Shown here piece by piece: positions 1 through 44,799 of a stretch of DNA of 58,475 nucleotides (position 1 is its first letter; every line of letters starts with the position of its first letter). The notes beneath the pieces were generated by a model, which was not told the DNA's origin, did no database searches, and saw only the letters and a program-made list of their open reading frames with translations. The stretch is taken from positions 1 to 58,475 of the IMG/VR virus record IMGVR_UViG_3300009158_003990; one strand, written 5' to 3'. The position numbers and the translations under genes were made by a program. Origin of the DNA: a virus (taxonomy: Duplodnaviria; Caudoviricetes).

Positions 1-204
1 ATTGGGGGTGGTACTATCCAAGGTGGACAGGTTTATGGTGGTACAACCCATGATGGTATGGACATTCAACACAATCCATGCTCTATTGCTGATGTTTACG
101 CAACAGCCTACAAAGCTTTGGGTTTAGATCCAATGTTCCAAATTAGAGATAATTTAGGGCGACCAATACCTATATCAGAAGGAAAGGCTTTAGATATATT
201 TTGA
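1..204 (+). CDS. DUF1501-family protein, C-terminal fragment (5' truncated)
   Basis: Frame 1 reads IGGGTIQGGQVYGGTTHDG...CSIADVYATAYKALGLDP...LGRPIPISEGKALDIF*, matching the GGG.KGG.VYG.TD...D..AT....LG.DP...GRP C-terminus of DUF1501 proteins; missed by ORF track. Confidence 0.75.
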   Translation: MGGGTIQGGQVYGGTTHDGMDIQHNPCSIADVYATAYKALGLDPMFQIRDNLGRPIPISEGKALDIF

Positions 205-1725: not shown

Positions 1726-1941
1726 ATGTTGGATTTATTCTTGGCAACATCGATTGCCTTTGGTTCTGAGTCTGTTAATGCTATTGGACTTCGTTCTAAG
1801 TCCAGTTGTTCTGGTGGTGTTTGTTCGTCTTCTGCACCTGTTGCAGTTGAAACCAATAAAAAACCAGAAACAAAGGCTGTTATTGCTACGCAAAAACAAT
1901 CTAGGTTCAAAGGACATCTTCGCTCAAAGAAATGTCGTTAA
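1726..1941 (+). CDS. small putative exported protein
   Basis: AGGAGG RBS; hydrophobic N-terminus, CSGGVC motif, basic tail. Confidence 0.55.
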   Translation: MLDLFLATSIAFGSESVNAIGLRSKSSCSGGVCSSSAPVAVETNKKPETKAVIATQKQSRFKGHLRSKKCR

Positions 1942-1953
1942 TCTATACGAGAC

Positions 1954-1986
1954 ATGGGGTTGTGTAAAAACAGCCCCATTGTTTTG
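1954..1986 (+). terminator. putative rho-independent terminator
   Basis: ATGGGGTTGT-GTAAAA-ACAGCCCCAT stem-loop followed by TGTTTTG after ORF 1726-1941. Confidence 0.6.
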
Positions 1987-2025
1987 TAAGAAAAACACAT
2001 ACATATTTCTTACAAGGAGGTTTAA

Positions 2026-2925
2026 GTGCTTAAAGTTTATGACATGTTTTCGGGCATAGGCGGTTTTGCTTTAGGGTTTCAAAAAGAAGGTTTTGAAGTA
2101 ACTGCTTTCGCAGAAGTAGATAAGTATCCTTCTCAAGTCTTGGCAAAAAACTTTCCAAACATTCCAAATTATGGCGATGTTACAAAAATAAAATACGAAA
2201 AAGATCAATTTGATGTAATAGTTGGGGGTTTCCCTTGCACAGATATATCTATAGCAAGCCAATCAAAGGAGGGCATATATGGAAAAAGATCGTTCCTATG
2301 GAAAGAATTCTTCCGAGCAGTTAGAGATGTTCAACCAAAATACTGTGTCATTGAAAATGTCTTTATGCTGCTTGGAAGAGGGCTTGAAACGGTATTACAA
2401 GACCTTGCCAGCATCGGGTACGATGCGACTTATACAACGCTCGATGCCCAATACTGTGGAACAGCCCAACGAAGGCGTAGGGTTTACATTTTGGGGGTGC
2501 GTGATGGAATCCCCGCCAATAGCGATATACTCCAGTTTGGCCCTCGTAGTACTAGAACCTGTCAACAAAGCGTTCAACTTGTCAAAAAAAGCTTTGAATG
2601 GAATTTTAAAGAGAGCATGTGGTTCAAAGAAACCTTTGCCTACTTTACTCGCCAAAGAAGTGATCAATTTGATGAATGCGGAGTCTCATCAACCTTAACA
2701 AAAAGAGATTATAAATCATTTACAGATTTAGTGGTATCTGATGGGAATATACGCAGAGTAACGCCTACAGAGAGACTTAGACTTATGGGTTTTCATGACC
2801 ATTGGCATATTCCAGATGCTTCAAATACTGATAAATATAAATACAATGGTATGCATGTACCTTCAGTACAGTACATAGCAAGATGTTTAAAGGAGTATCA
2901 CAAATGTTTGAGTTCTCAAAAATAG
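2026..2925 (+). CDS. dcm: DNA (cytosine-5)-methyltransferase
   Basis: Motif I FSGIGG, motif IV GGFPCTDIS, motif VI IENV, motif VIII QRRRRVY; GTG start with AGGAGG RBS. Confidence 0.92.
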   Translation: MLKVYDMFSGIGGFALGFQKEGFEVTAFAEVDKYPSQVLAKNFPNIPNYGDVTKIKYEKDQFDVIVGGFPCTDISIASQSKEGIYGKRSFLWKEFFRAVRDVQPKYCVIENVFMLLGRGLETVLQDLASIGYDATYTTLDAQYCGTAQRRRRVYILGVRDGIPANSDILQFGPRSTRTCQQSVQLVKKSFEWNFKESMWFKETFAYFTRQRSDQFDECGVSSTLTKRDYKSFTDLVVSDGNIRRVTPTERLRLMGFHDHWHIPDASNTDKYKYNGMHVPSVQYIARCLKEYHKCLSSQK

Positions 2926-3536
2926 CAGAAAAATTTGACGAACACTTGTCTGGACAATTATATTGGCACAGCAATTTCGTTAATCATTTCTTGCCTGAGA
3001 TTGCATCTGTATTTATGGCAGAAGAAACAAATTGTTATGATTTTGGGGCAAGCACAGGTAATGTTGAGTTAGCTTTATCAAGTATGATTAAATCAAGAAA
3101 CATAGATTTTATACCTGTTGAAAAATGCAAAGAAATGGTAGAAAGATATAAAGGTGAAAGCGAAGTAGTTCTTGATGACTTTCTCAATATTTATATGGAA
3201 GAGTTTTCATTTGCCACATGCATTTTATCTCTATGTTTTGTTCATCCATCAAAAAGAGAAATGTTTATAGATTCTTTAAAAAATAACTGTATGATTGGCG
3301 GTGCTTTTGTGATATTAGAAAAAATGAAATCTAAAGGTGGATACTTAGGAACAGCTTTAAATAGAGTCACATGGCGTAACAAGATTGAAAATGGTGAATC
3401 TTTAAAAATGGTGATTAATAAAGAGCTTTCTTTAAGTGGTGTTCAGTATCCATTAAGCGAAAAAGAACTTGAAGGATTTGAGTTAATATGGGCTTATGGT
3501 GATTTTAGAGCTTATATTTGGCTAAAGGAGTTTTAA
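2904..3536 (+). CDS. CmoA-like (carboxy-SAM synthase family) SAM-dependent protein
   Basis: F.F..IAE.FDEH, YDFGASTG, GGAFVILEK resemble CmoA; ATG 2904 with AGGAG RBS, overlaps dcm stop. Confidence 0.7.
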   Translation: MFEFSKIAEKFDEHLSGQLYWHSNFVNHFLPEIASVFMAEETNCYDFGASTGNVELALSSMIKSRNIDFIPVEKCKEMVERYKGESEVVLDDFLNIYMEEFSFATCILSLCFVHPSKREMFIDSLKNNCMIGGAFVILEKMKSKGGYLGTALNRVTWRNKIENGESLKMVINKELSLSGVQYPLSEKELEGFELIWAYGDFRAYIWLKEF

Positions 3537-3537
3537 A

Positions 3538-3786
3538 ATGGATGAAGAATTAGATTATCATTGTTCTGAATGCGGTGTTCAAATTTCAGAGTGGATGCTT
3601 AGAGATGTAGATGGAGTTACAGTTGACACTTGTTTAAATTGTGCTATTAAAACATCATTAATGTCATGCCCTGTTTGCAATAAAAATATAGGAATGACAA
3701 ATGTAGATCGTGCAAATAGAATACTAGGAGATGGATGGGAAGAAATGTGTGAAGAGTGTGCAACTGAATTTAATAGAAAGAAATAA
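3538..3786 (+). CDS. Cys-rich zinc-finger protein
   Basis: Four CxxC pairs. Confidence 0.6.
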   Translation: MDEELDYHCSECGVQISEWMLRDVDGVTVDTCLNCAIKTSLMSCPVCNKNIGMTNVDRANRILGDGWEEMCEECATEFNRKK

Positions 3787-3787
3787 A

Positions 3788-3937
3788 ATGGAAGATGAAT
3801 TTATTATTACTTTTTTAAATAATAAAAAGTATAGAATTAAAGATGTTAAAAAAATAGTTAAAGATGAACCAAAAATTAACAAAAAATATATAAGCGAGAT
3901 AGATGAAAAAATATGTAAGTGGAAAATAAAATGGTGA
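3788..3937 (+). CDS. hypothetical protein
   Basis: ATG immediately after upstream stop, fills operon gap. Confidence 0.4.
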   Translation: MEDEFIITFLNNKKYRIKDVKKIVKDEPKINKKYISEIDEKICKWKIKW

Positions 3938-4350
3938 ACATAAAGTTAATAATAAATAATAAAGTTTATTATGCTATGTGTAGTGATGAATCAAATAAAC
4001 AAAAAATGAAAATGGGTATAACTTGGGCAGATTTACTTCATCATCTTGAATCTGGTCCATTTTTAGAAGAATCTGAAATAAATCAAAATAGCGAAAACAA
4101 TCACCTAATAGATTTATCTGAAAGCTTAGATGGATTAAAGTTTTTAATTTTTACTTTTAAAAGCAATGGTAAAAAAATGTTTTCTGTTCACTGTAATGAA
4201 AAAATTTTGATTAGTAAAAAAATGCCATTTAATAAATGGAGAGCTTATTTAAGTTGTGGACATTCTTTTTTGATGGACTCATCTATAGACAGTCAAAATA
4301 AATATAAAAGGGTTTTTTGTTCTAATTGTTTGGAGCATTCTTATGATTAA
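3919..4350 (+). CDS. hypothetical protein
   Basis: ORF in tight operon; C-terminal LSCGH...CSNC zinc motif. Confidence 0.55.
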   Translation: MENKMVNIKLIINNKVYYAMCSDESNKQKMKMGITWADLLHHLESGPFLEESEINQNSENNHLIDLSESLDGLKFLIFTFKSNGKKMFSVHCNEKILISKKMPFNKWRAYLSCGHSFLMDSSIDSQNKYKRVFCSNCLEHSYD

Positions 4351-4786: not shown

Positions 4787-5396
4787 TATTATGAAAAGAA
4801 TTGAGCATGGAAATAGTTTAGCGGACAAACTAGCACATTATCTCAATTTTAGATTTAAGTATGAATTTGAAAAAGCTTCTCTTGAAGAAGATAGAAATCT
4901 AATGATTGATTATAAATGTAAGAAAAATAATAAAACTGCACAATTTAAGTGTCGTGAAAATAAATCAGACATTATTTATGAAGTAATGAGATTTTATTCT
5001 TTAAATGGACAAGATCATCAAGAAGCACCAGGAAGAGATGTGAGAACAACATCACAACTTTATATATGCTTATCTTCTGATAAAAGAAAAATAATTGTTG
5101 CAGAAACTGAAGCTGTTAAAAAAGTTGTAAATAAAGAAATGCAAAAAATAATAATGAATGCTGGAGTAGCAAAACAATATGAAATAGATTGTCAGACAAC
5201 AAGAAATAAAACAAAAAGATTGTCTACAAGCAAGTCTGGAATTGAAATATGGTTTAAGGTAGACGAAGGAAGAGACTCAAGATATTACAGTAAAGTTTTA
5301 GTTTTTATTCCATATTCTGCAATATTTGAATCAATAACAATTGATGTAAGAGAAAATGAAAATATAGAAGATGAAAGGACTTGGAAAAATGAATGA
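4773..5396 (+). CDS. hypothetical protein, possible PD-(D/E)xK nuclease fold
   Basis: ED...IDY...AQFKCR pattern resembles a D...QxK nuclease motif. Confidence 0.4.
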   Translation: MKTDDIMKRIEHGNSLADKLAHYLNFRFKYEFEKASLEEDRNLMIDYKCKKNNKTAQFKCRENKSDIIYEVMRFYSLNGQDHQEAPGRDVRTTSQLYICLSSDKRKIIVAETEAVKKVVNKEMQKIIMNAGVAKQYEIDCQTTRNKTKRLSTSKSGIEIWFKVDEGRDSRYYSKVLVFIPYSAIFESITIDVRENENIEDERTWKNE

Positions 5397-5985
5397 TGAA
5401 ATCATGTTTAATCAAAGAAATCCACATGTTGTAATTGTTGATGAATTTTATAAAGATCCAGATTCAATTGTAGAAACAACAAAAGAATTTGTATTTAAAG
5501 AAGAAAATAAATTTTACAAAGGAAAAAGAACAACCCAATGTTTATTTCCTTATGTAAAAGAAGAATTTGAAAGAATACTTAATGTTGAAATAGTTGATTG
5601 GTTAAATCAACCTATGAATGGCGTTTTTCAAATAACAGAAGGCAAAGATCCTTTAGTCTATCATAGCGATCAACAAGACTATGCAGCAGCAGTATATTTA
5701 ACAAAAGATGGACCAACAAATGCTGGAACATCATTTTGGATAGATAAAAAATATGGGTGTAGAAGACCACCAAGTCACCCATTAGAACATAGAGAAGGAA
5801 TAAGCGATTCAGATATATATACACAACATAATCTTACGCATGAAGATAATTGGGAATTAGTAGATAGAGTTGGTTCTGTGTATAATCGCCTAGTTATTTG
5901 GGATGGAAAAATGATTCATTCTGCCACTATGTATGGTGATTTTTCTAGGTTGGTTCAACTATTCTTTTTTAATGTGAAAAAATAA
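5389..5985 (+). CDS. 2OG-Fe(II) oxygenase-like protein (DUF6445-like)
   Basis: VIVDEFYKDPD, HSD, AAVYL, GTSF, NRLVIWDG..IHSA, RLVQLFF. Confidence 0.7.
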   Translation: MNDEIMFNQRNPHVVIVDEFYKDPDSIVETTKEFVFKEENKFYKGKRTTQCLFPYVKEEFERILNVEIVDWLNQPMNGVFQITEGKDPLVYHSDQQDYAAAVYLTKDGPTNAGTSFWIDKKYGCRRPPSHPLEHREGISDSDIYTQHNLTHEDNWELVDRVGSVYNRLVIWDGKMIHSATMYGDFSRLVQLFFFNVKK

Positions 5986-7235
5986 TGCCATACTTTTCAA
6001 TTGTAACACCAACACATAACGCACAATTTCTTGCTAGACTTTCTAGATCTATAGAAAGGCAAACATTTAAAGATTTTGAATGGATAATTGTTCCTAATGG
6101 AAATGCCAACATTGATATTGAAACTTTGGCTTTTAAACCAAAAGTTATTTATTCTGGTTATCCAAATTCAAAATTAATTGGTCATTTTAAAAAAAGAGGG
6201 TGCTTTGCATCTCAAGGAACTATATTAGTAGAAGTAGATCATGATGATGAACTAACAGAAGATTGCTTGCAAGAATTATATAATGCATTTAATTCAGATG
6301 AGACAATTGATTTTGCATATTCAAATTGTGCAGAAATAAATGCTGATGGAGAACCATTTGTTTACTCTAACTATTTTGGCTGGAGAAATAGACCGCTTAA
6401 GTATTATGGAAGAGATCTTTTAGAACTAATATCATTCGATCCAAATCCAGCTTCATTTTCTAAGATTTGGTTTGCACCAAATCATGTGAGAGCTTGGAAA
6501 AAATCTTTCTATGATAAAATTGGTGGTCATAATGAAACAATGGAAGTTTTAGATGATCACGATATTCTTTGCAGAACATACATACAAGGCAAAGTTAAAC
6601 ATATAGATAAGTGTTTGTATATTTACTATAAGCACAAAGAAAATACCTGTTATGGTGAGAAGAATGCTTTTATTCAAGAAGAGACATTAAACATTCATGA
6701 TAAGTATATTTATGCATTAGTTGAGAAATGGTGCGACCTTAATAGTTTGCTTAAGATAGACCTTTGTGGAGGTTTTAATTCTCCAAAGGGGTACAAGTCA
6801 ATAGACATGCAAAACGCAGAAATTATACACGATTTAAACGATCCTTGGCCTTTTAAAGATAGCGAAGTAGGATTGATAAGGGCACATGATGCACTAGAAC
6901 ATTTAAGAGATCCAATTCATGTTATGAGAGAATCTTATAGGTGCTTGTGTCCAATGGGTTGGTTTTTAACTCAAACCCCATCAACAGATGGTAGAGGTGC
7001 TTTTCAAGATCCAACACACATATCTTTTTGGAACAGCAATAGCTTTTGGTATTACACTAAAGAAGAACAGGCAAAATATATCGGAACACCAGTAAGATTT
7101 CAAGGAAATAGAATTAAGAATTTTTATCCAACTGATTGGCACAAGACACATAATATACTTTATGTAAAAGCTGACCTTGTAAGACTTCCAGATAGAAATT
7201 TAAATGTAAGAGTTCCTGGAGAAGTCTCAATATGA
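5985..7235 (+). CDS. GT2 glycosyltransferase fused to class I methyltransferase domain
   Basis: SIVTPTHN, EVDHDD (DxD), DDHDILCR; C-terminal IDLCGG...AHDALEHL..P...E.YR.L.P.G. Confidence 0.85.
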   Translation: MPYFSIVTPTHNAQFLARLSRSIERQTFKDFEWIIVPNGNANIDIETLAFKPKVIYSGYPNSKLIGHFKKRGCFASQGTILVEVDHDDELTEDCLQELYNAFNSDETIDFAYSNCAEINADGEPFVYSNYFGWRNRPLKYYGRDLLELISFDPNPASFSKIWFAPNHVRAWKKSFYDKIGGHNETMEVLDDHDILCRTYIQGKVKHIDKCLYIYYKHKENTCYGEKNAFIQEETLNIHDKYIYALVEKWCDLNSLLKIDLCGGFNSPKGYKSIDMQNAEIIHDLNDPWPFKDSEVGLIRAHDALEHLRDPIHVMRESYRCLCPMGWFLTQTPSTDGRGAFQDPTHISFWNSNSFWYYTKEEQAKYIGTPVRFQGNRIKNFYPTDWHKTHNILYVKADLVRLPDRNLNVRVPGEVSI

Positions 7236-7444
7236 AAATAATAATTAAAAACACATCTGGAGATTTTTTTTGCAAACAACCAGAAGTTGGAATTACAAAA
7301 AATAAAAAAGATGCCCATATATTTTTTTGTTTAAATGATTATCATGCAAATTTAATTTTAGAAAAAACAAAGCAATTTATTTCAAATGATAATTTAAATC
7401 TTGAGATTATTGATAAAACAGAAATTAATTTAAATATAGAGTAA
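7232..7444 (+). CDS. hypothetical protein
   Basis: ATGA overlap with upstream gene. Confidence 0.5.
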   Translation: MKIIIKNTSGDFFCKQPEVGITKNKKDAHIFFCLNDYHANLILEKTKQFISNDNLNLEIIDKTEINLNIE

Positions 7445-7451
7445 AACATTT

Positions 7452-7640
7452 ATGAAAATTAAAAAGAATAGACAAAAAAAAGCTAGAAGAATTATGCTTC
7501 TTGCAGCAATAAGAATGTCTAAAGAAATTGGAATTAAATTTGATAGAATTAATATGGAAGAAACAAGAGATATTTATATGTGCAAGTATGGCGTAGATAG
7601 TTTGATTAGGCGATTTGATATAGCGAGTATTGTTGCTTGA
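7452..7640 (+). CDS. hypothetical protein
   Basis: Short basic ORF in operon. Confidence 0.5.
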   Translation: MKIKKNRQKKARRIMLLAAIRMSKEIGIKFDRINMEETRDIYMCKYGVDSLIRRFDIASIVA

Positions 7641-8033
7641 TTATTTCTTTGGTGTCTTTGTTTTAATTCCAGATTTTTTATATTCATTTCTCATAGATTG
7701 TTTGTCATCTATAGCAAACAGTATTTTTTCTTTAATGCTCTGTGCGTGTTTAATTTTTGATTCATTCTGTTCTTTTGAGCTATCTCCCAATCCATTCATC
7801 ATAAGTTTGTTGTATTTGACTCCAGCTTTTTTAAGTGCTTCTGTTGTGTCTTTCCTATTCGACTCAGGTCTGCCAGTTATAATGTATATTTTGTTTTCTT
7901 TTGACAACTCATTAACATAATCAATAACTTTTTTAATTGGGTATATACCATTACGCAATATAGTATTGTCAATATCAACAATTACTACGCTTGAATTAGA
8001 AAAATAAGCATGTATATCTTTTATTATATTCAC
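7641..8033 (-). CDS. HAD-family phosphatase (polynucleotide kinase 3'-phosphatase-like)
   Basis: DIDNT motif I, ITGRPE motif II, K, AIDD motif IV; probable GTG start at 8033 after AAGGAG. Confidence 0.8.
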   Translation of the reverse strand: MNIIKDIHAYFSNSSVVIVDIDNTILRNGIYPIKKVIDYVNELSKENKIYIITGRPESNRKDTTEALKKAGVKYNKLMMNGLGDSSKEQNESKIKHAQSIKEKILFAIDDKQSMRNEYKKSGIKTKTPKK

Positions 8034-8055
8034 ATTAATCTCCTTATTTAATAAG

Positions 8056-8070
8056 TACACCGTGGTGTAT
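8056..8070. promoter_or_regulatory. inverted GGTGTA repeat between divergent genes (putative back-to-back phage promoters)
   Basis: TACACC-GT-GGTGTA perfect inverted repeat; each half reads GGTGTA toward an AT-rich tract, an RBS and a gene. Confidence 0.5.
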
Positions 8071-8092
8071 TTTATATTAAAGGGAGCTAAAA

Positions 8093-8671
8093 ATGAAATT
8101 AAATATACTTACTGTTTTATTTAGAAAAGAATTTTTAGAAAAACAAATAGAATCAATCCCAAATAGAAATGATATAAATTGGATAATTTGTAAAACTAAA
8201 TCTTGGGGTGAATTGCCAAAAGAAATAGTTAATAATAATAAAAATTTTTCAACAATTGTTGCTGAAGTTGACTGCGATGAAATAAAAGAAAATTTTGTAG
8301 CAAAAATAAATTATGGAATGTCTTTTGTTGAAAACGGGTTTTTTTACTTGTTAGATGACGATAATATTGTTCACAAAAATATGATTTCTTTTTATGATAC
8401 GCATAAACAATACGATATGATAATTGGAAAACAAATATATAAAAATGGAAATTTGCGTATATATGCACACATACCAAAACAAGACCACATAGATATGGGC
8501 AATGTTATATGCACAACAAAAATTTTAAAAGATGTTGATTATTTTAATAATGTTGATAAATCAATGTCATCATATGATGGGCAGTTTTGGATGCAGTGTT
8601 ATTCAAAATTAAAAAAGGAAAATGTTTTTTTAACAGATGAAACTATATTTTATTATAATGGACTAAGATAA
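8093..8671 (+). CDS. GT2-like (GT-A) glycosyltransferase
   Basis: FYLLDDDN DxD motif; IDMG; DG.F. Confidence 0.7.
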   Translation: MKLNILTVLFRKEFLEKQIESIPNRNDINWIICKTKSWGELPKEIVNNNKNFSTIVAEVDCDEIKENFVAKINYGMSFVENGFFYLLDDDNIVHKNMISFYDTHKQYDMIIGKQIYKNGNLRIYAHIPKQDHIDMGNVICTTKILKDVDYFNNVDKSMSSYDGQFWMQCYSKLKKENVFLTDETIFYYNGLR

Positions 8672-9279
8672 TGGCTATAGGTGTTCATAAAATAACAGAA
8701 GATTTTGAATTATTGGTTTCTAAGTATACCAATGCTCCTTATTGTGTTGCTATTGATAATTGTAGCAATGCTTTATTTCTTGCTCTTTCATATGAAAACA
8801 TAAAAGATAAAAAAATAAGTATTCCATCTAGAACTTACCCATCTGTTCCATGTGAAATAATTCATGCTGATGGTAAAGTTGAATTTTATCAAGTTGAAGG
8901 AAAAATAAAAGGTGAATATCAACTACTAGGAACAAAAGTATTTGATAGTGCTTTAAGATTTACATCTAATATGTACAGAAAAGGATTTACTCAATGTCTT
9001 TCTTTTAGTGGTCCTCACAAGCATTTAAAGCTTGGCAAAGGAGGGATGATATTAACTGACGATATAGAAGCTTATAAATGGTATAAGAAAGCAAGATTTA
9101 GCGGAAGAAGCGAATGTAGCTATCACGATGATAATTTTACCATGACAGGTTGGAACTTTTACATGCTTCCAGAAATAGCTGCTAAAGGAATAGGTCTTAT
9201 GGCAGGAATAAAAGATCATAATGAAGATTTAGAATTATTGTATCCTGATTTAAGTAATTTTAAAGTATATAAAAAATAA
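8671..9279 (+). CDS. DegT/DnrJ/EryC1/StrS-family PLP sugar aminotransferase (short form)
   Basis: NCSNALFLAL, PSRTY, FDSA, LSFSGPHKHL..GKGGMILTD (PLP Lys), GWNFYM; only 202 aa. Confidence 0.8.
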   Translation: MAIGVHKITEDFELLVSKYTNAPYCVAIDNCSNALFLALSYENIKDKKISIPSRTYPSVPCEIIHADGKVEFYQVEGKIKGEYQLLGTKVFDSALRFTSNMYRKGFTQCLSFSGPHKHLKLGKGGMILTDDIEAYKWYKKARFSGRSECSYHDDNFTMTGWNFYMLPEIAAKGIGLMAGIKDHNEDLELLYPDLSNFKVYKK

Positions 9280-9281
9280 TT

Positions 9282-9842
9282 ATGTTTTTAAATAAAAACC
9301 AATTGGTTAAAATAAAATTTAAAAGCATTGGGAAAAATGTATTTATTTCCAATAAATGTTCTATATATTCTCCACATTTAATTGAAATTGGAGATAATGT
9401 AAGAATAGATGATTTTAGTATTTTGTCACCAGGAAGCAGCTTGAAAATTGGAAACTATGTACACATAGGATGCTATAGTTCTTTAATTGGAAAAGGTGAA
9501 TTTATATTAGAAGATTTTGTGGGTATTTCTGGAAGAGTATCTTTGTATAGTAGTTCTGATGATTATACTGGAATGTCAATGACAAATGTAATGATTCCAA
9601 ACGATTTTAAAAAAGTTTTAAGTGGAAAAATTCATATTAAAAAACATTCTATTATAGGAACTGGTTCAATATTATTGCCAAATATAACAATAGAAATGGG
9701 TTGTTCAATTTATGCACAAACACTTATACAATATGATTGTGAAGAATTTGGTGTTTATAGTGGAAATCCATCAAAGCTAATAGGAAAAAGATTAAAGGAG
9801 TTTTTAAAATATGAAAAAAGATTTATTGAAAATAATAAATGA
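9282..9842 (+). CDS. vioB: left-handed beta-helix N-acyltransferase, VioB/AntD-like
   Basis: FKSIGKNVFIS...IGDNVRIDDF..., SLIGKG, YSSSDDYTG, KHSIIGTGS.LLP closely follow the VioB/AntD pattern as I recall it. Confidence 0.75.
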   Translation: MFLNKNQLVKIKFKSIGKNVFISNKCSIYSPHLIEIGDNVRIDDFSILSPGSSLKIGNYVHIGCYSSLIGKGEFILEDFVGISGRVSLYSSSDDYTGMSMTNVMIPNDFKKVLSGKIHIKKHSIIGTGSILLPNITIEMGCSIYAQTLIQYDCEEFGVYSGNPSKLIGKRLKEFLKYEKRFIENNK

Positions 9843-10032
9843 AGTATTAAAAGAAAAAGAAATTAAACTATTAGAAATTTATCCAGAAATGAGTTTGAGA
9901 AATGATATTGGTTTTGATTCTCTCAATTTAGCATACTTAACTGTTTTAATTGAAGATAAATATGGAATTGACATTTTTGAAAATGGTGTGATTGATACTA
10001 TATCTGATATATTAAAAAAAATAAATGAATAA
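9811..10032 (+). CDS. acpP: acyl carrier protein
   Basis: 73 aa acidic protein with GFDSL phosphopantetheine motif and IEDKYGIDI. Confidence 0.9.
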   Translation: MKKDLLKIINEVLKEKEIKLLEIYPEMSLRNDIGFDSLNLAYLTVLIEDKYGIDIFENGVIDTISDILKKINE

Positions 10033-10978
10033 CTTTATATTAAACAATACTGATTCAATCATTGACTATGAAATACTAGGGTTTATTGAAAAAATAAAAA
10101 ATAAAGAAGACATTATTTTTACAACTTCTGGAACAACAGGAGAACCAAAAAAAATAATTCATAGCTATAAAACATTAGTTAAAAACATAAAAATTAAAGA
10201 TGAATTAAAAAATAGCGTTTGGGCATTGACATATGACTATACAAAAATGGCTGGATCACAAGTTATATTGCAGTCTTATTTAAACAAAGCAAAAATTGTT
10301 AACTTATTTAAAAAATCTTATGCAGAAACAATAAGTTTAATAAAAAAATATAATGTAACACACATATCTGCTACTCCTACTTTTTATAGATTATTAACAA
10401 ATAACATTTTTAAAAAAATAAAACAAGCAACAATAGGTGGTGAACCAGTAGATATTAATTTAATTAGTTATTTAAAAAAAATATTTCCTAATGCAAAAAT
10501 AACAAACATATACGCATCAACAGAGTTTGGAACATTGTTTAGTTCAAATGATTATTGTTTTACAATATCAGAAAAAAATGAGTCGTTTGTTAAAATAATA
10601 AAAGAAACAATTTTTATAAAAAACAATGATAAATGGTTTAATACAGAAGATAAAATTGAATGGGTAGAATCAAATAAGTTTAAAATAATTGGAAGAGATT
10701 CAAATATGATAAATGTAGGTGGAGTAAAAGTAAATCCAATAAAAATAGAATCTGCAATAAATAATTTACATTATGTTTTAAGCTCTTATGTTTATGGAAA
10801 AAGTAATTCAATAATGGGAACAATAGTAGTTGCAGATATTATTGTTAAAAAAAATGTAGATAAAAATATAATAAAAAAAGACTTAGAAAAAACTTTAAAT
10901 AGATATGAAATTCCTTTAAAAATAAATATAGTTGATAATATACATTTAACCTCTACTGGCAAGATAATAAGAAAATGA
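10025..10978 (+). CDS. ANL-family adenylate-forming enzyme (acyl-CoA/acyl-ACP synthetase), N-terminally compact
   Basis: FTTSGTTGEPK, YASTEFG, IIGR..MINVGG.KVNP, TSTGKI motifs. Confidence 0.85.
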   Translation: MNNFILNNTDSIIDYEILGFIEKIKNKEDIIFTTSGTTGEPKKIIHSYKTLVKNIKIKDELKNSVWALTYDYTKMAGSQVILQSYLNKAKIVNLFKKSYAETISLIKKYNVTHISATPTFYRLLTNNIFKKIKQATIGGEPVDINLISYLKKIFPNAKITNIYASTEFGTLFSSNDYCFTISEKNESFVKIIKETIFIKNNDKWFNTEDKIEWVESNKFKIIGRDSNMINVGGVKVNPIKIESAINNLHYVLSSYVYGKSNSIMGTIVVADIIVKKNVDKNIIKKDLEKTLNRYEIPLKINIVDNIHLTSTGKIIRK

Positions 10979-11697
10979 AAACAATTTTAGTTAGTGGAAT
11001 ATCGAAAGGATTAGGTTTAGTTTTATTGAAATCATTGTTATTGGATAACAATATTGTTTATGGAATAAGCAGAACTACTAATGATGAAATAGATGAATTA
11101 AAAAAAATATATCATAATAATTTTATTCATTTAATGCATGATTTAAGTTTATCTGAGTGTGTTGCAAAATTATCAACTCATATATTAAAAAATAAAATAA
11201 AATTTGATTGTTTTATTAACAATGCAGCGTTTGCATACGATGATATTATAACTAATGCAAGTTTAAGTAAATTAGAATACATGTTTAAAATAAATGTATT
11301 AAATCCAATTATGATTACAAAAATAATGCTTAGAAATTTTATTCTTAATAAAACAAAAGGAAACATAGTTCATATTTCAAGTATAAGTGTTCACACAGGA
11401 TATAAAGGACTGTCAATGTATGCAGCAACAAAAGGTGCTATCGAAGCATTTTCAAAAAATACAGCAAGAGAATGGGGAGAAATTGGAATTAGATCAAATT
11501 GTATTGTTGCTGGATTTATGGAAACAGAAATGAATAATAAATTAACTATTGATAAAAAAGAAAGAATATACAATAGAACATGTTTAAAAAAACAAACAAA
11601 TAAAAATTCAGTAGTTGATACTATTAAATTTTTAATTTCTAAAAATGCAAATTCAATTACTGGTCAAAATTTTTTTGTGGATTGTGGAACAATTTAA
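10975..11697 (+). CDS. fabG: SDR oxidoreductase, 3-oxoacyl-ACP reductase-like
   Basis: SGISKGLG, NNAA, ISS, YAATK (YxxxK), ITGQ..VDCG. Confidence 0.8.
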   Translation: MKTILVSGISKGLGLVLLKSLLLDNNIVYGISRTTNDEIDELKKIYHNNFIHLMHDLSLSECVAKLSTHILKNKIKFDCFINNAAFAYDDIITNASLSKLEYMFKINVLNPIMITKIMLRNFILNKTKGNIVHISSISVHTGYKGLSMYAATKGAIEAFSKNTAREWGEIGIRSNCIVAGFMETEMNNKLTIDKKERIYNRTCLKKQTNKNSVVDTIKFLISKNANSITGQNFFVDCGTI

Positions 11698-11708
11698 AAG
11701 GATTATAC

Positions 11709-12419
11709 ATGATACATGTTTACGGATTATGTTATAGAATACTAGACTATGCTAAAAAAACAGTTGATAGTTTAAGAGAAACTGCTTCTGAAGATTTTAA
11801 TTTAACATGTGTTGAAGGAAGATCATGCAACTCAGAATCTTTTTTAAGTTGGGGTAAACAATGTTTGGAAAATAAAAAAATTCAAAGATTTATAACATCA
11901 AGCACAAATTGTCGTGGGTATGGATTAAGTTGGGCTATTAAAAATTTTAAACCAGATGATTCAGAAGATTTTTTTATATTAACGGATTTAGATGTTTTAG
12001 TTCCAAAAAATATAGATTGGATAAAAGAAGTAAGGGAAACAATGAAAAACAATGTTATATCTGGATTTACTTTAAATAACAAGAATTATGTTTATCCAAA
12101 TTCTAAATGGAACGAAAACGAAAACATTTCAAAAAAATTATTTAGCTTAATAATTATGTCTGTTAAAACAAAAGAATACTTTAAAGTTTATGAAAAAAAA
12201 TTAGTTAATTTAATAGATTCAGATATTATTTCAAATATGTCTAATTATGGAAAAAGAGATTTAATTGATTCTAAGTTATATCATCTTGGATGGGATGCAT
12301 GGAAAGACGATAAGGAATATTGGGAAAATAAAAAAAATAAAAATAACTGGAACTTAAAAAAAGACTATGATGATACAGATGAAGAGCCAATATTTAAGGT
12401 ATACACAAATGACAACTAA
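11709..12419 (+). CDS. GT-A fold glycosyltransferase-like protein
   Basis: FILTDLDV DxD motif; YHLGW. Confidence 0.55.
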   Translation: MIHVYGLCYRILDYAKKTVDSLRETASEDFNLTCVEGRSCNSESFLSWGKQCLENKKIQRFITSSTNCRGYGLSWAIKNFKPDDSEDFFILTDLDVLVPKNIDWIKEVRETMKNNVISGFTLNNKNYVYPNSKWNENENISKKLFSLIIMSVKTKEYFKVYEKKLVNLIDSDIISNMSNYGKRDLIDSKLYHLGWDAWKDDKEYWENKKNKNNWNLKKDYDDTDEEPIFKVYTNDN

Positions 12420-13023
12420 AGAATCGTTGGATCTTGTAAAAAAAATAACTCAAAAAATACCAAGCTTTCATCATCACTACCATGTTCTTTATGACATATC
12501 AAATCTTATTAAAAAAGAAAATATTAATTATGTTGAAATAGGTGCGTATGCTGGAGCATCAGCAGCATTAATGCTTCATAATCCAAAAGTAAATGTTATT
12601 TCTATAGACATTGGAGATCCAATAAGACAAGAAGATGTACACAACAACATTTCTATTTTTTTTGATTGTAATAATAAAAAAAGATTTGATTATATAGAAG
12701 GAAGTTCTCATGCAGAAGAAACAAAAATTGAACTTTTAAATAAAATTAAAGAAATAGATATTCTTTTTATTGATGGAGATCACCCTTATAATTCAGTTAT
12801 AAAAGATTTTGAAATTTATTCTTGTTTAGTAAATAAAAATGGGTATATAGTTTTTGATGATTATCATTGCAATACATGCACTGAAGTAAAACCAGCCGTA
12901 AATTTTATAGTTTCAAATTTAAAAAAAGATGAATTTGAAGTTATAGGTAGTTTGCCAAACACATTTAATGCTTTTCCAGAAAGTTTTAAATCAAGCAATT
13001 GTTTTGTGTTAAGAAAAAAATAA
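12409..13023 (+). CDS. class I SAM methyltransferase (Methyltransf_24-like)
   Basis: VEIGAYAGAS, ILFIDGDH.Y..V..D, GYIVFDDY. Confidence 0.85.
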   Translation: MTTKESLDLVKKITQKIPSFHHHYHVLYDISNLIKKENINYVEIGAYAGASAALMLHNPKVNVISIDIGDPIRQEDVHNNISIFFDCNNKKRFDYIEGSSHAEETKIELLNKIKEIDILFIDGDHPYNSVIKDFEIYSCLVNKNGYIVFDDYHCNTCTEVKPAVNFIVSNLKKDEFEVIGSLPNTFNAFPESFKSSNCFVLRKK

Positions 13024-14744: not shown

Positions 14745-14917
14745 AAGATAAAAATAAGCAATCTGTTAGTTGTCTTGGTTTTTGTGGTAAAAATTTTATG
14801 AGTATAGATCCTAAAACAAATAGAATTTGTAAAAAATGCAAAGAAAAGATGTATAATAAAAAGAACGAAATGGGCAAAAATTACTTTAATGAAAAAAAAA
14901 CAGAGATAAATGAATAA
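14741..14917 (+). CDS. small zinc-finger protein (not in ORF track)
   Basis: MKDKNKQSVSCLGFCGKNFMSIDPKTNRICKKCKEK...; ATGA overlap with upstream gene and overlap with downstream gene. Confidence 0.6.
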   Translation: MKDKNKQSVSCLGFCGKNFMSIDPKTNRICKKCKEKMYNKKNEMGKNYFNEKKTEINE

Positions 14918-15953
14918 ACCAAAAGTTGCACTTATAACACCATCATTAGGTATGGGTGGTGCAGAAAGATGGATAGTTACTCTTGCAAAATTCTTCAAAA
15001 GATTAGAACCTTATTTAATTTTAAATTTAAGTGGTCAAAGCGATTCAATTTTATTAGAAGAAGTTCCAAGCAAAACAAAAATTATATCTGGTCTTTATTT
15101 AAGTTCAGATAAAATCATAAATATTTTAAGCGAAGCAGATGCAATTATTTCTTGGTGTTTTAATTTAGACTTAAGATTAAAGGATAAATTAAAATGTCCA
15201 ACAATAGATGTTTCTCATAGTGACCCAACATGGGAAAACCACAAATCTTTGATTGATTACACATCAAAAAATTCAAAGTATCATGTTGGAGTAAGTAGGG
15301 TTGCTGCTTCAGCATATAAAAATAACAATTCAGATGTAATTTATAACGGAATAGATACAAAAAGACTTAAGGAAGTAAGAGGAAGAATTAAACAAAGAGA
15401 AGAATGGGATTGTGAAAATAACAAAGTAGTTATTTTTTTAAGCAGATTGTCAGAAGAAAAAAATCCTAAAATATTGCTAGATTGTTCTGATTTGTTTGAT
15501 GAAAGTTGGAAGTTTTTATTTGTTAATACTGGCTCTATAAAAAATTATTTTAATTCAATTAAAAAAAACAATATCAAAATTATAGAAAAAACAAAATATG
15601 TTGGAGATTATTATTCTGGTGCAGATGTAGTAGTTCTTCCTTCAGACATAGAAGGAATGCCATTAGTTTTATTAGAGTCTTGGTTTTGTGGTGTTCCTGT
15701 TGTAACGACTAGGTATGATTCTTATGTTGAATTAGAAAATATGCATGGGGAATTATGTTTGTCAACAGAAGTAAGACCAACAGCACTTGAATTTTCAAAT
15801 AAAATAAACCAAGCTTTTTATGAGGGCAGATGTTCTAAAAGAGTTATTCTTGCCAAAGATGTTGTGGAAAAAAATTATACTCATGAAACAATGATTAAAA
15901 ATTGGGAAGATTATGTGTTTTTAAAAATGAAAGAATGTAATGATACGCAATAA
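14910..15953 (+). CDS. GT4 glycosyltransferase
   Basis: GGAERW, VIYNGID, SRLSEEKN, PSDIEGMPLVLLESWFCGVPVV. Confidence 0.9.
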   Translation: MNKPKVALITPSLGMGGAERWIVTLAKFFKRLEPYLILNLSGQSDSILLEEVPSKTKIISGLYLSSDKIINILSEADAIISWCFNLDLRLKDKLKCPTIDVSHSDPTWENHKSLIDYTSKNSKYHVGVSRVAASAYKNNNSDVIYNGIDTKRLKEVRGRIKQREEWDCENNKVVIFLSRLSEEKNPKILLDCSDLFDESWKFLFVNTGSIKNYFNSIKKNNIKIIEKTKYVGDYYSGADVVVLPSDIEGMPLVLLESWFCGVPVVTTRYDSYVELENMHGELCLSTEVRPTALEFSNKINQAFYEGRCSKRVILAKDVVEKNYTHETMIKNWEDYVFLKMKECNDTQ

Positions 15954-16551
15954 CAAAAAAAAATGGATATATATAGGACCACCAAAAACTGGAAGCACAG
16001 CAGTATCTTATATACTGACAGATGGAAAATACAAAAAAAATTATATTGCCGAAAGTTTAAGTATTAATTTTGAAGGAAAAGAAATAAATGGTCAACATAC
16101 ACCTTGGCCTCCTAAAAAATTAAAAACTAAATACAACAATCATACAGTTTTTATAAGTGTAAGAAATCCTTTTTCTAGAATAGTTTCCCTTTATAATCAT
16201 TGGAAAAATGGAAAAAATTATGGTCGTGAATTATTATCAAAAGATAAAACGCTTGAAGAATTTATATATCTTGTTTTAAAAAAATCTCTTTCTAATAATG
16301 GATTTTTTCACACCACAATAACAGATTGGGTTTATAGATATGATTATTTTATAAAACAAGAAAATTTATACAATGATTTAAAAATGCTGAATATTCACTC
16401 TAATGATTTTATTATTCCTTTAATAAACGGAAAAATAAATTCGACAGATTACTGGAAAGAAGTACATAATAAAAAAACAATTGAGATGACAATTGAATGG
16501 GCAGAAAAAGATTTTTGTAATTTTGGATACAGTAAGGACATTAATGCTTAA
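15940..16551 (+). CDS. sulfotransferase family 2 protein
   Basis: 5'-PSB PPKTGSTAV and 3'-PB VRNPFSRIVSLY; DF..FGY. Confidence 0.8.
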   Translation: MIRNNKKKWIYIGPPKTGSTAVSYILTDGKYKKNYIAESLSINFEGKEINGQHTPWPPKKLKTKYNNHTVFISVRNPFSRIVSLYNHWKNGKNYGRELLSKDKTLEEFIYLVLKKSLSNNGFFHTTITDWVYRYDYFIKQENLYNDLKMLNIHSNDFIIPLINGKINSTDYWKEVHNKKTIEMTIEWAEKDFCNFGYSKDINA

Positions 16552-17260
16552 TTATTTTTTTGGATTTTTTGGTTCTGATCGTTCTGGTAAATGGTGGACT
16601 CTTCGTTGTCAGCACATTAAAGATAATCCATCATGCATAGGTTGTGGCACAAAAAAAGATGTACAAGTTCATCATAAAATACCAGTTAGTGTTGATGTAT
16701 CTAAAGAGTTGTGCAGAGATAACTTATGTACTCTTTGCAAATATTGCCATTTTGTTTTTGGGCATTTGCACAATTACAAAAATTATAATCCAGAAGTAAT
16801 TAGGGATTGCCAAGAGCATTACAAAAGAGTAAAACAATTTAAAGTTAAAACTTTTCAACGACCTATTTCTTTATGGAGGACTATTATGACTAAGTTTTTT
16901 GGTTCTATTGCTTTGGTTTTTTTGGGCTATTCAATTTATGTTAGCCATATGTATGTAGTAGAAACTAACAAAAATACAACAATTAAAGAGCTTTTTGCTG
17001 CTGAAAATAGAATCTTGAAAGATGAAATTTACGCAGAGCGAAGCAAGCCAACTTATGAAAATGGCTATAGAGATGCTATTTTAAGGGCTGGTTCACCAAG
17101 TGGTTCTGGTGCATATCGTGATGGTTGGGAATCTTGTGCAAAGCTTTATACAGATGGCTCATGGACAAGCGGATATCATACAGCACTAGAACAATTCGGG
17201 TGGAAGAATGAGTCTACAGCATTCAAAACCAATAAACCTCAAAGCGTATCTATGAAATAA
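16544..17260 (+). CDS. HNH endonuclease in frame with a membrane-anchored domain
   Basis: CIGC, VHHKIP, NLCTLCKYCH HNH domain; internal GGAGGA RBS + ATG at 16886 begins a hydrophobic segment. Confidence 0.7.
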   Translation: MLNYFFGFFGSDRSGKWWTLRCQHIKDNPSCIGCGTKKDVQVHHKIPVSVDVSKELCRDNLCTLCKYCHFVFGHLHNYKNYNPEVIRDCQEHYKRVKQFKVKTFQRPISLWRTIMTKFFGSIALVFLGYSIYVSHMYVVETNKNTTIKELFAAENRILKDEIYAERSKPTYENGYRDAILRAGSPSGSGAYRDGWESCAKLYTDGSWTSGYHTALEQFGWKNESTAFKTNKPQSVSMK

Positions 17261-17272
17261 TTTTTTGTCTTT

Positions 17273-17305
17273 TTGCCCTCATACTGTGTATTAGTATGGG
17301 GGCAA
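17273..17305 (+). promoter_or_regulatory. RBS-sequestering hairpin with GTGTATT loop
   Basis: TTGCCCTCATACT-GTGTATT-AGTATGGGGGCAA 13-bp stem (one G-U), ending 1 nt before ATG 17307. Confidence 0.65.
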
Positions 17306-17306
17306 C

Positions 17307-17681
17307 ATGAAAAAAAAGTCACATAACAATACGACAGTTGGAAAAATATCTGGAAGATATTGGTGTTCTTTAATAAAGAATGCAAAAAGAAGAAATATAA
17401 AAATAACAGTAACAATGCAAGATGCTTGGGAAATTTTTTTAAAACAAAATAAAAAATGTTTTTATACTGGATTAAAAATAACGCATACAAAATATTTAAA
17501 AAGAATTAATAATAAAAATGTATACTCTTTAGGGACCGCTTCAATAGATAGAAAAAATAGCGAACTTGGATATACCAAAGAAAATATACAATGGGTTCAT
17601 AAAGATGTTAACTACATGAAAATGAATTTAAACGAAAAATATTTTATAAAACTTTGTAAGCTTATATCTAAAAGATTCTAA
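17307..17681 (+). CDS. HNH-type (homing-like) endonuclease
   Basis: Q..KCFYTG, ASIDRKNSELGYTKENIQWVHKDVNYMK. Confidence 0.75.
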   Translation: MKKKSHNNTTVGKISGRYWCSLIKNAKRRNIKITVTMQDAWEIFLKQNKKCFYTGLKITHTKYLKRINNKNVYSLGTASIDRKNSELGYTKENIQWVHKDVNYMKMNLNEKYFIKLCKLISKRF

Positions 17682-17696
17682 TAGAAGAGTACTTAA

Positions 17697-18191
17697 ATGA
17701 AAATAATTCTAAACAATAATGATTTGTTGAAAAAAAAATGTTTAAATGTAGATTTAAAAACAGGATTTAAAGTTGCCAAAAGAATGGGTATGTTTTTAAA
17801 CACATTAAAGAAAAAAACAAATAATAAAATAGTTGGTTTGGCAGCAAATCAAATTGGCATAAATGCATGTGTATGTATAGCGTTAAAAAACAGTAAGCCT
17901 TTTGTTTTAATAAATCCAAAAATAATTTCTTTTTCTAATGTAAGAATTAGAAATAAAGAGCAGTGTTTAAGTTATCCAGATGTAGAGCTAGATGTATACA
18001 GACATATGTGGATTGAAGTTTCTTGTTCTAATCATAAAGAAACAATTTTCTTTGGAAATGTTTCACTTGAAAGTGATACTATTAAAAATCTTGAGAGTGC
18101 TGTTGCTCAACATGAAATATGTCATTTAAACGGATTGACTTTTCATGATTTTCAATGGAACAATGCCCCAACACCAACGGAGTGGAACTAA
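17697..18191 (+). CDS. def: peptide deformylase
   Basis: GLAANQIG, EQCLS, QHEICHLNG motifs. Confidence 0.92.
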   Translation: MKIILNNNDLLKKKCLNVDLKTGFKVAKRMGMFLNTLKKKTNNKIVGLAANQIGINACVCIALKNSKPFVLINPKIISFSNVRIRNKEQCLSYPDVELDVYRHMWIEVSCSNHKETIFFGNVSLESDTIKNLESAVAQHEICHLNGLTFHDFQWNNAPTPTEWN

Positions 18192-18192
18192 T

Positions 18193-18456: not shown

Positions 18457-18463
18457 AAAAATA

Positions 18464-44795: not shown

Positions 44796-44799
44796 TAAT

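Follow-up and report, generated by a model that had tools for sequence, protein, structure and literature searches.

A C5-cytosine DNA transferase coupled to a CmoA homolog in a freshwater phage: a candidate carboxymethylcytosine module of a second lineage

A gene for a C5-cytosine DNA transferase overlaps a CmoA-like gene in phage DNA from IMG/VR record IMGVR_UViG_3300009158_003990, and this locus raises the question of which group the pair places on cytosine. The window, meaning the whole stretch of DNA that we analyzed, is 58,475 nucleotides long and comes from a freshwater phage. A first-pass annotation proposed that the two genes make and use an altered SAM donor, perhaps not carboxy-SAM (Cx-SAM). 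A non-methyl, CmoA-derived group at cytosine C5 does appear to be the most likely product, but the concept itself is already published: in Synechococcus phage S-B43, CmoA makes Cx-SAM and CmoX writes 5-carboxymethylcytosine (5cxmC) (Yang et al., Nat Commun, Dec 2025, PMC12783734). The window locus represents a separate lineage.

The transferase and its motif X

The transferase and the elements that we located in it are as follows.

2014..2020, plus strand: Shine-Dalgarno sequence AAGGAGG, read directly from the sequence, 5 nt 5' of the GTG start codon of the transferase
2026..2925, plus strand: C5-cytosine DNA transferase of the Met-type lineage, 299 aa (PF00145, TIGR00675, fold model)
2047..2067, plus strand: motif I, FSGIGGF, cofactor binding
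2224..2250, plus strand: motif IV, GGFPCTDIS, not the SPPC of CmoX
2236-2238, plus strand: catalytic Cys71, within motif IV
2239-2241, plus strand: Thr72, at the position of HhaI Gln82
2353..2361, plus strand: motif VI, ENV
2467..2481, plus strand: motif VIII, QRRRR
2836..2862, plus strand: motif X, YKYNGMHVP
2851-2853, plus strand: Met276, at the position of HhaI Asn304 and SpCmoX Arg350 (hhalign)

The open reading frame (ORF) matched PF00145 (E 1.8e-53) and TIGR00675 (E 1.4e-48), and all hallmarks of a C5-cytosine methyltransferase (MTase) were found: the fold, Cys71 in motif IV, ENV, and the arginines of motif VIII. The best fold matches of the model were M.HhaI and M.HaeIII, with CmoX (8YF3) at rank 18, and the TRD was modeled at low confidence, with pLDDT values below 50 at residues 189-233.

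Motif X is atypical, as the first-pass annotation had noted. The canonical G-N-[AS]-V of Dcm-type 5mC enzymes is absent from the window MTase, which reads G-M-H-V-P. Alignment with hhalign against a profile of Arg-type CmoX placed Gly275-Met276 on Gly349-Arg350 (probability 99.8), and therefore Met, not Asn, occupies the HhaI Asn304 position. MAFFT alignments likewise paired Met276 with Arg350. This Met was invariant in 121 of 121 relatives, which together form the Met-type lineage, but the His that the annotation had singled out was variable (GMS 59, GMT 39, GMH 14, GMD 4, and others). A pairwise HMMER alignment to HhaI gave another register, with Asn274 on Asn304, which we keep as a caveat only, as residue 274 varies among the relatives (N, C, S, T, G, Q, and P). 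A three-class MAFFT alignment misaligned motifs IX and X between the classes, and the C-terminal region was taken from hhalign instead. Three long relatives (P0163, P0167, and P0186) were considered as CmoA-MTase fusions and rejected; they are MTases that carry inteins.

Yang et al. define CmoX by an SPPC motif (S95 P96 P97 C98) together with Arg350 (PMC12783734). The SPPC motif was absent from the window MTase and from 121 of 121 Met-type relatives, which have F/T-P/T-C, and the window MTase has no equivalent of Arg350, with Met276 in that column. The window MTase is 26% identical to SpCmoX and has its own conserved TRD (FAYFTRQRS...KRDYKSFTD). Judged from these residues, the Met-type lineage would fall outside CmoX as published. 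A signature of SPPC plus Arg350 would miss the entire lineage and also the Ser-type and Lys-type enzymes that we observed. The S-B43 system nevertheless resembles the window pair. Both couple a phage CmoA homolog to a C5-MTase homolog that has another residue in place of the motif X Asn, and in both the catalytic Cys precedes a small residue, which is Ser in CmoX and Thr in the window MTase. Both are also predicted to modify DNA as a protection from restriction.

The CmoA-like partner and the extent of the module

The second gene and the features around it are as follows.

2889..2895, plus strand: AAAGGAG, within the MTase gene at its 3' end and 8 nt 5' of ATG 2904, where ribosomes likely bind to translate the CmoA-like gene
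2904..3536, plus strand: CmoA-like gene of the KELSLSG subfamily, predicted carboxy-SAM synthase, 210 aa (217 aa if started at ATG 2883)
3036..3059, plus strand: glycine-rich SAM-binding motif YDFGASTG, aligned with E. coli D62-G64-S66
3420..3440, plus strand: KELSLSG subfamily signature, with Glu181 aligned to E. coli Arg199
3538..3786, plus strand: zinc-ribbon ORF, 82 aa, starting 2 nt 3' of the CmoA stop

Both ORFs of the annotated overlap were confirmed. Counted from the first ATG (2883), the overlap is 43 nt, but the true overlap is probably 22 nt, because AAAGGAG precedes ATG 2904 and most of the listed homologs of the CmoA-like protein are 210-211 aa long, covering 96-97% of the query.

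The best NCBIfam match of the CmoA-like protein was TIGR00740 CmoA (E 2.6e-19), at 69.8 bits against a cutoff of 193.3. SpCmoA, a proven Cx-SAM synthase, also fell under this cutoff, at 115.6 bits, and the cutoff is therefore not decisive on the function of the phage enzymes. The protein also matched phrog_4752 (2.4e-31) and the PDB CmoA sequences (E 6e-11); a tblastn search of isolate phages returned only nine records, none of them close. Its fold model (pLDDT 86.2) has a class I MTase core with a helical lid, and the top six PDB fold matches were all CmoA (1im8, 4iwn, and 4gek; TM 0.82-0.85). On the evidence of this model, the second gene encodes a genuine relative of CmoA, as first proposed.

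Compared with the CmoA/CmoB pathway for tRNA cmo5U in E. coli (4GEK, 4IWN), the CmoA fold is shared (TM 0.83-0.85, 25% identity) and the YDxGxSxG motif is kept, with D53, G55, and S57 aligned with Asp62, Gly64, and Ser66, whose roles in SAM binding are described in PMC3663124. The window pair differs in having no CmoB, a predicted DNA target, Glu in place of Arg199, and a score below the TIGR00740 cutoff. It differs from S-B43 CmoA in belonging to the KELSLSG subfamily, for which function is predicted only; the signature was invariant or nearly so in an alignment of 18 subfamily sequences.

The module appears to end with these two genes. The zinc-ribbon ORF is probably outside it, because it was not found across other Met-type clades. 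We found no CmoY-like ligase (SpCmoY homolog) in the 58-kb window or in Met-type loci, and no ParB-N gene beside the window MTase, a further difference from the S-B43 system. An AMP-binding enzyme (10025-10978) was considered as a substitute ligase and rejected; it is missing from five other phage genomes in which the pair occurs, of which two are 99-100% complete. A lake-metagenome contig that joins position 1858 to 3952, which would skip the whole module, was unusable, since its shorter side has only 21 letters. Two RNA-library contigs (X19 and X20) span parts of both genes and may stem from DNA carried in the library.

Linkage of Met-type transferases to CmoA homologs

A scan of IMG/VR seeded only on Met-type TRD patterns yielded 59 loci, 56 of them true Met-type. 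A CmoA homolog was present in 55 of the 56 (12 of 13 clusters at 70% identity) and absent from the remaining locus, L215. A control scan seeded on MTase motifs I and IV yielded 80 loci: all five full-length Met-type loci had a CmoA homolog, and none of the 75 ordinary-MTase loci had one within 6 kb. Motif X read G-N-[AST] in 72 of these 75. Ordinary orphan phage Dcm-type 5mC MTases share the fold and motifs I, IV, VI, and VIII with the window MTase, many of them having GGFPC[QT]DIS, but their motif X is still G-N-[AS]-V and none of the 75 has a CmoA neighbor.

When loci were seeded on CmoA (n = 80), a C5-MTase gene adjoined the CmoA gene in 73, comprising 40 Arg-type, 32 Met-type, 1 Ser-type, and 0 Asn-type enzymes; the seven loci without an MTase have no more than about 1.3 kb of contig on the upstream side of CmoA. 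Every one of the 30 full-length Met-type loci in this set had the two genes overlapping or no more than 60 nt apart. Across 139 CmoA-bearing loci, the unique MTase ORFs numbered 37 Met, 34 Arg, and 3 Ser-type, plus 3 that were truncated or split, and the canonical G-N motif X occurred in none of them. These results show that the pairing is far above chance and that the linkage is near-obligate for Met-type enzymes. They bear out the earlier proposal of a functional pair and extend the synteny of CmoA-like partners with C5-MTases to many phage lineages. The MTase and the CmoA homolog, and nothing else, are common to the Met-type clades. A scan of 185,579 species genomes gave three loci, of which one was true Met-type with an adjoining CmoA gene, and the Met-type module is therefore phage specific.

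We think it probable, if by a modest measure, that the two genes form a carboxymethylcytosine module belonging to a second lineage, one that is undescribed and has no CmoY ligase. The genes would be translationally coupled as one phage DNA modification module, in which the CmoA-like protein would turn SAM, with prephenate, into Cx-SAM. The Met-type transferase would then move the carboxymethyl group to cytosine C5 within a short target motif by a covalent mechanism at Cys71, and 5cxmC in the phage DNA may shield it against host restriction. As an independent lineage, these transferases would have replaced the motif X Asn with Met rather than Arg, an uncharged solution that may open the pocket.

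The same loci could instead encode an ordinary SAM-dependent 5mC enzyme and a CmoA-like protein with a separate job, the two traveling together as an antidefense cassette, a reading that we consider unlikely but worth serious attention. The separate job could be, for example, a drain on host SAM or a disturbance by Cx-SAM of SAM-dependent defenses or tRNA modification, and SAM depletion was raised by Yang et al. as a possible CmoA role (PMC12783734). M.CviPI has a natural Tyr at the motif X position and yet is an ordinary 5mC enzyme (PMC13288465), so a non-Asn residue there is no proof of a non-methyl donor, and a cationic residue for the carboxylate is missing from the Met-type enzymes. Met-type enzymes also occur without a CmoA homolog, both at L215 and in all three Vibrio phage genomes searched whole (S4-7, 1.052.A, and 1.233.A), which are among four isolate Vibrio phage records with such enzymes. 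However, Vibrio hosts plausibly provide their own Cx-SAM (PMC12783734 cites CmoB of Vibrio vulnificus), and a SAM drain would starve a SAM-dependent partner. The lineage-specific linkage (55/56 versus 0/75 loci) and the tight spacing of the genes argue against this reading, as does the CmoA tree, where the partners acquired by Met-type enzymes fall into at least two clades.

The donor and the transferred group

Arg199 of E. coli CmoA forms a salt bridge with the carboxylate of Cx-SAM (PMC3663124). K180-E181 of the CmoA-like protein aligned with K198-R199 of the E. coli enzyme, both by HMMER to three CmoA PDB sequences and by MAFFT, and no Arg aligned with Arg199. The change that the first-pass annotation had read by eye (KRSML to KELSL) is thus real, but the step from it to a donor other than Cx-SAM is weak. 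In 40 of the 73 loci, among them that of Moraxella phage Mcat8, the neighbor of an Arg199-less KELSLSG CmoA is a canonical SPPC/Arg-type CmoX, and Met-type enzymes pair with relatives of SpCmoA, which itself has Glu in this column by MAFFT and an Arg four residues further on. CmoAs with Met-type and with Arg-type partners were intermingled in their tree, and SpCmoA clustered with the CmoAs of Met-type loci L131-L134. It is from the pairing with Arg-type CmoX at these 40 loci that we infer possible synthesis of Cx-SAM from SAM and prephenate by the CmoA-like protein.

The Arg199-less enzyme might nonetheless make another SAM derivative, for instance an uncharged one, from which a Met-lined pocket would transfer a group to give an undescribed base; we regard this as improbable. 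Both charge partners are gone, Arg199 from the synthase and Arg350 from the transferase, and the lid of the KELSLSG subfamily is remodeled, with its own invariant residues (Gln25, Trp28, Arg161, Lys167, and KELSLSG). Moreover, CmoY, a ligase dependent on a carboxyl handle, is absent from the window and from all the Met-type loci, as opposed to 15 Arg-type loci with SpCmoY homologs. Yet the KELSLSG CmoAs pair with a CmoX that binds a carboxylate, Met-type MTases pair equally well with enzymes of the SpCmoA clade, and SpCmoA itself has no Arg in the Arg199 column of the MAFFT alignments. The accessible part of PMC10491745 describes no CmoA chemistry besides Cx-SAM.

Published enzymes show how much the motif X residue can matter. 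Arg350 of SpCmoX contacts the carboxymethyl group of Cx-SAM, and the R350N variant is dead (PMC12783734). In M.MpeI, saturation mutagenesis of N374 found cationic side chains to be best for CxSAM use (PMC13288465). The absence of a cationic residue at the carboxylate-binding position, as aligned, counts against Cx-SAM use by the window MTase. The engineered carboxymethyltransferases M.MpeI N374K, M.MedI N377K, and M.CviPI Y205K/R likewise differ at a single motif X residue that alters donor use, but each gained a cationic side chain where the window MTase has an uncharged Met.

Engineered M.HhaI offers another comparison. According to the accessible part of PMC3526304, the pocket that holds the group to be transferred is lined by Gln82, Tyr254, and Asn304. 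Larger groups are transferred faster by N304A, which accepts methyl groups too, and methyl transfer is 27-fold slower in Y254S/N304A. As far as that part goes, the Q82A/Y254S/N304A replacements, which are laboratory variants used with synthetic cofactors, favor larger groups over methyl. The window MTase resembles them in that nonamide residues stand in for Gln82 (Thr) and Asn304 (Met), but Met has a larger side chain than Ala, and the geometry of its pocket may differ.

A promiscuous Met-type enzyme would yield a mixture of 5mC and 5cxmC in a ratio set by the phage CmoA through a shift of the SAM/Cx-SAM pool. Wild-type M.MedI, with Asn, carboxymethylates weakly and its N377K variant still methylates (PMC12015181), and the HhaI N304A variants behave similarly in the portion of PMC3526304 cited above. 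Wild-type SpCmoX, however, accepts Cx-SAM only (PMC12783734), so natural enzymes can be selective, and we give a mixture very little weight.

If Met-type enzymes do use Cx-SAM, then a motif X arginine would be dispensable for carboxylate recognition, and the common mark of CmoA-linked enzymes would be the loss of the motif X Asn rather than the gain of Arg. Phage DNA modification of the 5cxmC type would then be undercounted in surveys, and a compact enzyme of 299 aa would offer a natural start for DNA-labeling tools that recognize another target motif. Should the donor be something else, a new base awaits discovery. Met-type enzymes are carried by cultured Vibrio phages, so the question of the donor is open to direct testing.

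Overlap and predicted folds of the gene pair

The 58,475-base IMG/VR virus record has ~35% completeness (CheckV) and ~30% G+C, and the + strand carries nearly all of its genes. Its sequence was seen again in freshwater, river and estuary metagenomes (at least nine studies besides the possible source). ORFs, family matches and a predicted CmoA fold confirmed the two overlapping genes described in the first-pass annotation.

2026-2925, +, C5-cytosine methyltransferase (MTase) ORF, 299 aa, GTG start 5 nt after AAGGAGG
2883-3536, +, CmoA-like ORF overlapping the MTase ORF, best family match CmoA

The MTase matched PF00145 (E 1.8e-53) and TIGR00675 (E 1.4e-48). The CmoA-like protein matched TIGR00740 (E 2.6e-19, 69.8 bits against a cut-off of 193.3) and phrog_4752, and its only PDB sequence matches at E ≤1 were three CmoA sequences (E 6e-11 to 1e-6). 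Because an ATG at 2904 is preceded by its own AAAGGAG and most of the listed homologues have 210-211 aa, spanning 96-97% of the query, the predicted gene overlap is likely 22 nt. For an AlphaFold model of the CmoA-like protein using 18 sequences (pLDDT 86.2), PDB matches one to six were all CmoA chains (TM 0.82-0.85). The MTase model (pLDDT 71.9, with a poorly defined TRD) best matched M.HhaI and M.HaeIII, with the CmoX structure 8YF3 at rank 18; as modeled, the enzyme has an ordinary C5-MTase fold and is no close relative of CmoX.

Natural 5-carboxymethylcytosine (5cxmC) was reported by Yang et al. (Nat Commun, December 2025; PMC12783734). Synechococcus phage S-B43 encodes three enzymes for this: SpCmoA forms carboxy-SAM (Cx-SAM), with SAM and prephenate as substrates, SpCmoX carboxymethylates cytosine at C5 within GC sites, and SpCmoY joins glycine to the carboxyl (PMC12783734). 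E. coli's own CmoA supplies SpCmoX adequately (PMC12783734). Arg350 in 8YF3 takes the place of HhaI Asn304 and touches the carboxymethyl group, R350N is inactive, and the authors' survey of 5,615 CmoX sequences was defined by an SPPC motif plus Arg350 (PMC12783734). The general idea of the first-pass annotation, a coupled pair using an altered SAM donor, is therefore supported in part but was already in print, largely anticipated by that study. The best isolate-phage match of the CmoA-like protein is in Moraxella phage Mcat8, where a ParB-N gene, an SPPC/G-R-M-V-A-P transferase and a CmoA-like gene form a canonical CmoX cassette. Unlike the canonical CmoX of S-B43 and Mcat8, the window MTase has GGFPCTDIS instead of SPPC in motif IV and YKYNGMHVP instead of an Arg350 motif X. 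Our preferred reading is that the pair belongs to a second lineage of CmoA-dependent cytosine-C5 modification systems, one undescribed in the main text of PMC12783734.

Motif X of the Met-type transferases

We aligned profiles of 17 Met-type and 12 Arg-type sequences (hhalign), the classes being named by the residue at the HhaI Asn304/SpCmoX Arg350 position. Gly275-Met276 of the window MTase fell on Gly349-Arg350 of CmoX (probability 99.8), and MAFFT agreed; the motif X noted earlier is present, with Met, not Asn, aligned to Arg350. All of the best 120 homologues and the window MTase carry [G/A]-M (GMS 59, GMT 39, GMH 14, GMD 4 and others), and the flanking Asn274 and His277 vary among Met-type relatives. 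A pairwise HMMER alignment to HhaI differs in placing Asn274 on Asn304, a caveat to be set beside the Cys, Ser, Thr, Gly, Gln or Pro found at position 274 in relatives. At the HhaI Gln82 position, after the catalytic Cys, the window MTase has Thr whereas CmoX has Ser; most relatives have Gln, Thr or Ser, and one has Ala.

The M.HhaI study (PMC3526304) describes the transferred group as crowded by Gln82, Tyr254 and Asn304, and reports that N304A transfers larger chains 4- to 8-fold faster than methyl and that methyl transfer is slowed 27-fold in Y254S/N304A. Given these mutant data, the shared pocket-opening step may be removal of the Asn amide, with Arg, Lys, Met or Ser in its place. Against this, in PMC13288465, saturation mutagenesis of M.MpeI N374 found cationic residues best for CxSAM, and M.CviPI, with a natural Tyr at the motif X site, is a normal methyltransferase. 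A plain 5mC MTase, with the CmoA-like protein in an independent role, therefore stays a real rival, although an unlikely one; a promiscuous enzyme we regard as very unlikely.

Three Met-type MTases of 593-755 aa (P0163, P0167 and P0186, from the representative search) bear an intein with a Hint domain, one with LAGLIDADG, beginning at about residue 71-76, near the motif IV catalytic Cys.

Linkage to CmoA homologues

We ran three IMG/VR scans seeded with the CmoA-like subfamily, with motifs I + IV, which are common to ordinary C5-MTases, and with Met-type TRD patterns. The CmoA-like seed gave 80 loci, and a C5-MTase adjoins the CmoA gene in 73 (40 Arg-type, 38 of them with full SPPC, 32 Met-type, 1 Ser-type and 0 Asn-type); the other seven all have a contig end ≤~1.3 kb upstream. 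Among the 80 motif I + IV loci, a CmoA homologue lay directly downstream in all five full-length Met-type loci, and the other 75, of which 72 have G-N-[AST] in motif X, had no CmoA homologue within 6 kb. The TRD seed gave 59 loci, 56 of them true Met-type, with L215 the sole one lacking a CmoA homologue; the 55 full-length enzymes of this set form 13 clusters at 70% identity, 12 with a CmoA gene. The survey of co-occurrence that the first-pass annotation had called for thus bears out the linkage (55/56 Met-type loci versus 0/75 others). The canonical G-N motif X was absent from every unique MTase ORF of the 139 CmoA-bearing loci combined (Met-type 37, Arg-type 34, Ser-type 3, truncated or split 3). 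Met-type clades have no genes in common except those for the MTase and the CmoA homologue.

Searching the TRD patterns against 185,579 species genomes gave one true Met-type locus, which has a CmoA gene and lies on a MAG contig of 3.8 kb; among 1.84 billion representatives, 89 proteins matched a TRD profile at E ≤1e-10. Met-type enzymes also occur, at 48-51% identity, in four isolate Vibrio phage records, and whole searches of three of them (all but 1.233.B) found no CmoA homologue. These enzymes fit either use of SAM or use of host-made Cx-SAM.

A complete 221-kb phage genome (CheckV 100%; L238 and L257) has two separate Met-type MTase and CmoA pairs (motif X KYCGMHVPS and KYCGMDVHS), with one CmoA gene per MTase and none shared. 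A third CmoA-linked C5-MTase class has ERCSGIP in motif X, with Ser/Gly where Arg or Asn is expected, and GG[FV]PC[KL]P[FW]S in motif IV.

L068:124-1164, ERCSGIP-class, sole MTase beside the CmoA gene
L132:5713-6729 (same as L211), ERCSGIP-class, adjoining a Met-type MTase and CmoA gene
L217:6248-7306, ERCSGIP-class, adjoining a Met-type MTase and CmoA gene

Downstream of the CmoA gene in L134 (7485-8631; equivalent to L216:6894-), a second MTase gene, split into two overlapping frames, has motif X FGKSMAVP; its Lys lies where HhaI has Asn304, mirroring in nature the engineered N374K. A Met-type pair occurs on one bacterial-MAG contig only, which bears an extra MTase upstream (L268:688-1512) with LGRTLNP (Arg) in motif X and GGFPCATFS, not SPPC; judged by these motifs, it is an Arg-type enzyme beyond the published SPPC definition.

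The predicted donor and other window genes

The first-pass annotation placed Glu at the carboxylate-binding Arg of CmoA and suggested that the donor is perhaps not Cx-SAM. Glu does occupy the E. coli Arg199 column, within a KELSLSG motif whose every residue is invariant or nearly so in 18 aligned CmoA-like sequences; Arg199 forms a salt bridge to the Cx-SAM carboxylate (PMC3663124). A different donor, giving a new base, would suit this Glu. However, the KELSLSG subfamily partners Arg-type CmoX in 40 loci (38/40 with full SPPC), Glu likewise fills that column of the MAFFT alignments in the proven SpCmoA, followed four residues later by Arg, and Met- and Arg-partnered sequences interleave in the CmoA tree, where SpCmoA clusters with its counterparts from Met-type loci L131-L134. 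These findings weaken the suggestion of a different donor, which we consider quite improbable. Both CmoA clades thus serve both transferase classes, and by association the economical reading is Cx-SAM as the one donor, with KELSLSG-type chemistry predicted. On balance, we lean toward a Cx-SAM/5cxmC module. SpCmoY homologues were found in no Met-type locus and nowhere in the window, and 15 Arg-type loci have one. Any 5cxmC formed would probably be the end product, as with Mcat8-like cassettes; a product lacking a carboxyl, such as a different donor might give, would suit the absence of a ligase equally well.

In metagenome run X5, one lake contig has a joint, 1858-3952, that would leave out precisely the block of MTase, CmoA and zinc-ribbon genes; with a shorter side of only 21 letters, it hints at most at the module being a cassette. 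Window 1-204 encodes the C-terminal end of a DUF1501-family protein, unusual for phage. A 673-aa protein (33711-35732) has a RecA domain in its C-terminal part only (residues 388-618), and its N-terminal 380 residues had no family match. DNA polymerase III alpha (DnaE type) occupies two ORFs within 41980-46425.

41980-43896, first DnaE-type ORF, PHP and NTPase domains
44148-44795, RNase_T-type exonuclease gene, between the DnaE-type ORFs with a small ORF
44800-46425, second DnaE-type ORF, finger, HhH and OB domains

Glycan genes are unusually many (5371-13023, 14910-19950, 26196-27146 on the - strand, and 46819-51141). At least seven encode glycosyltransferases, among them a GT2-methyltransferase fusion (5985-7235). 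The set further holds a DegT-like aminotransferase fragment, a hexapeptide acyltransferase, an AMP-binding enzyme, an SDR, two more methyltransferases and two 2OG-oxygenase-like ORFs (1132-1629 and 5371-5985). Their candidate targets are DNA, the virion or the host surface.
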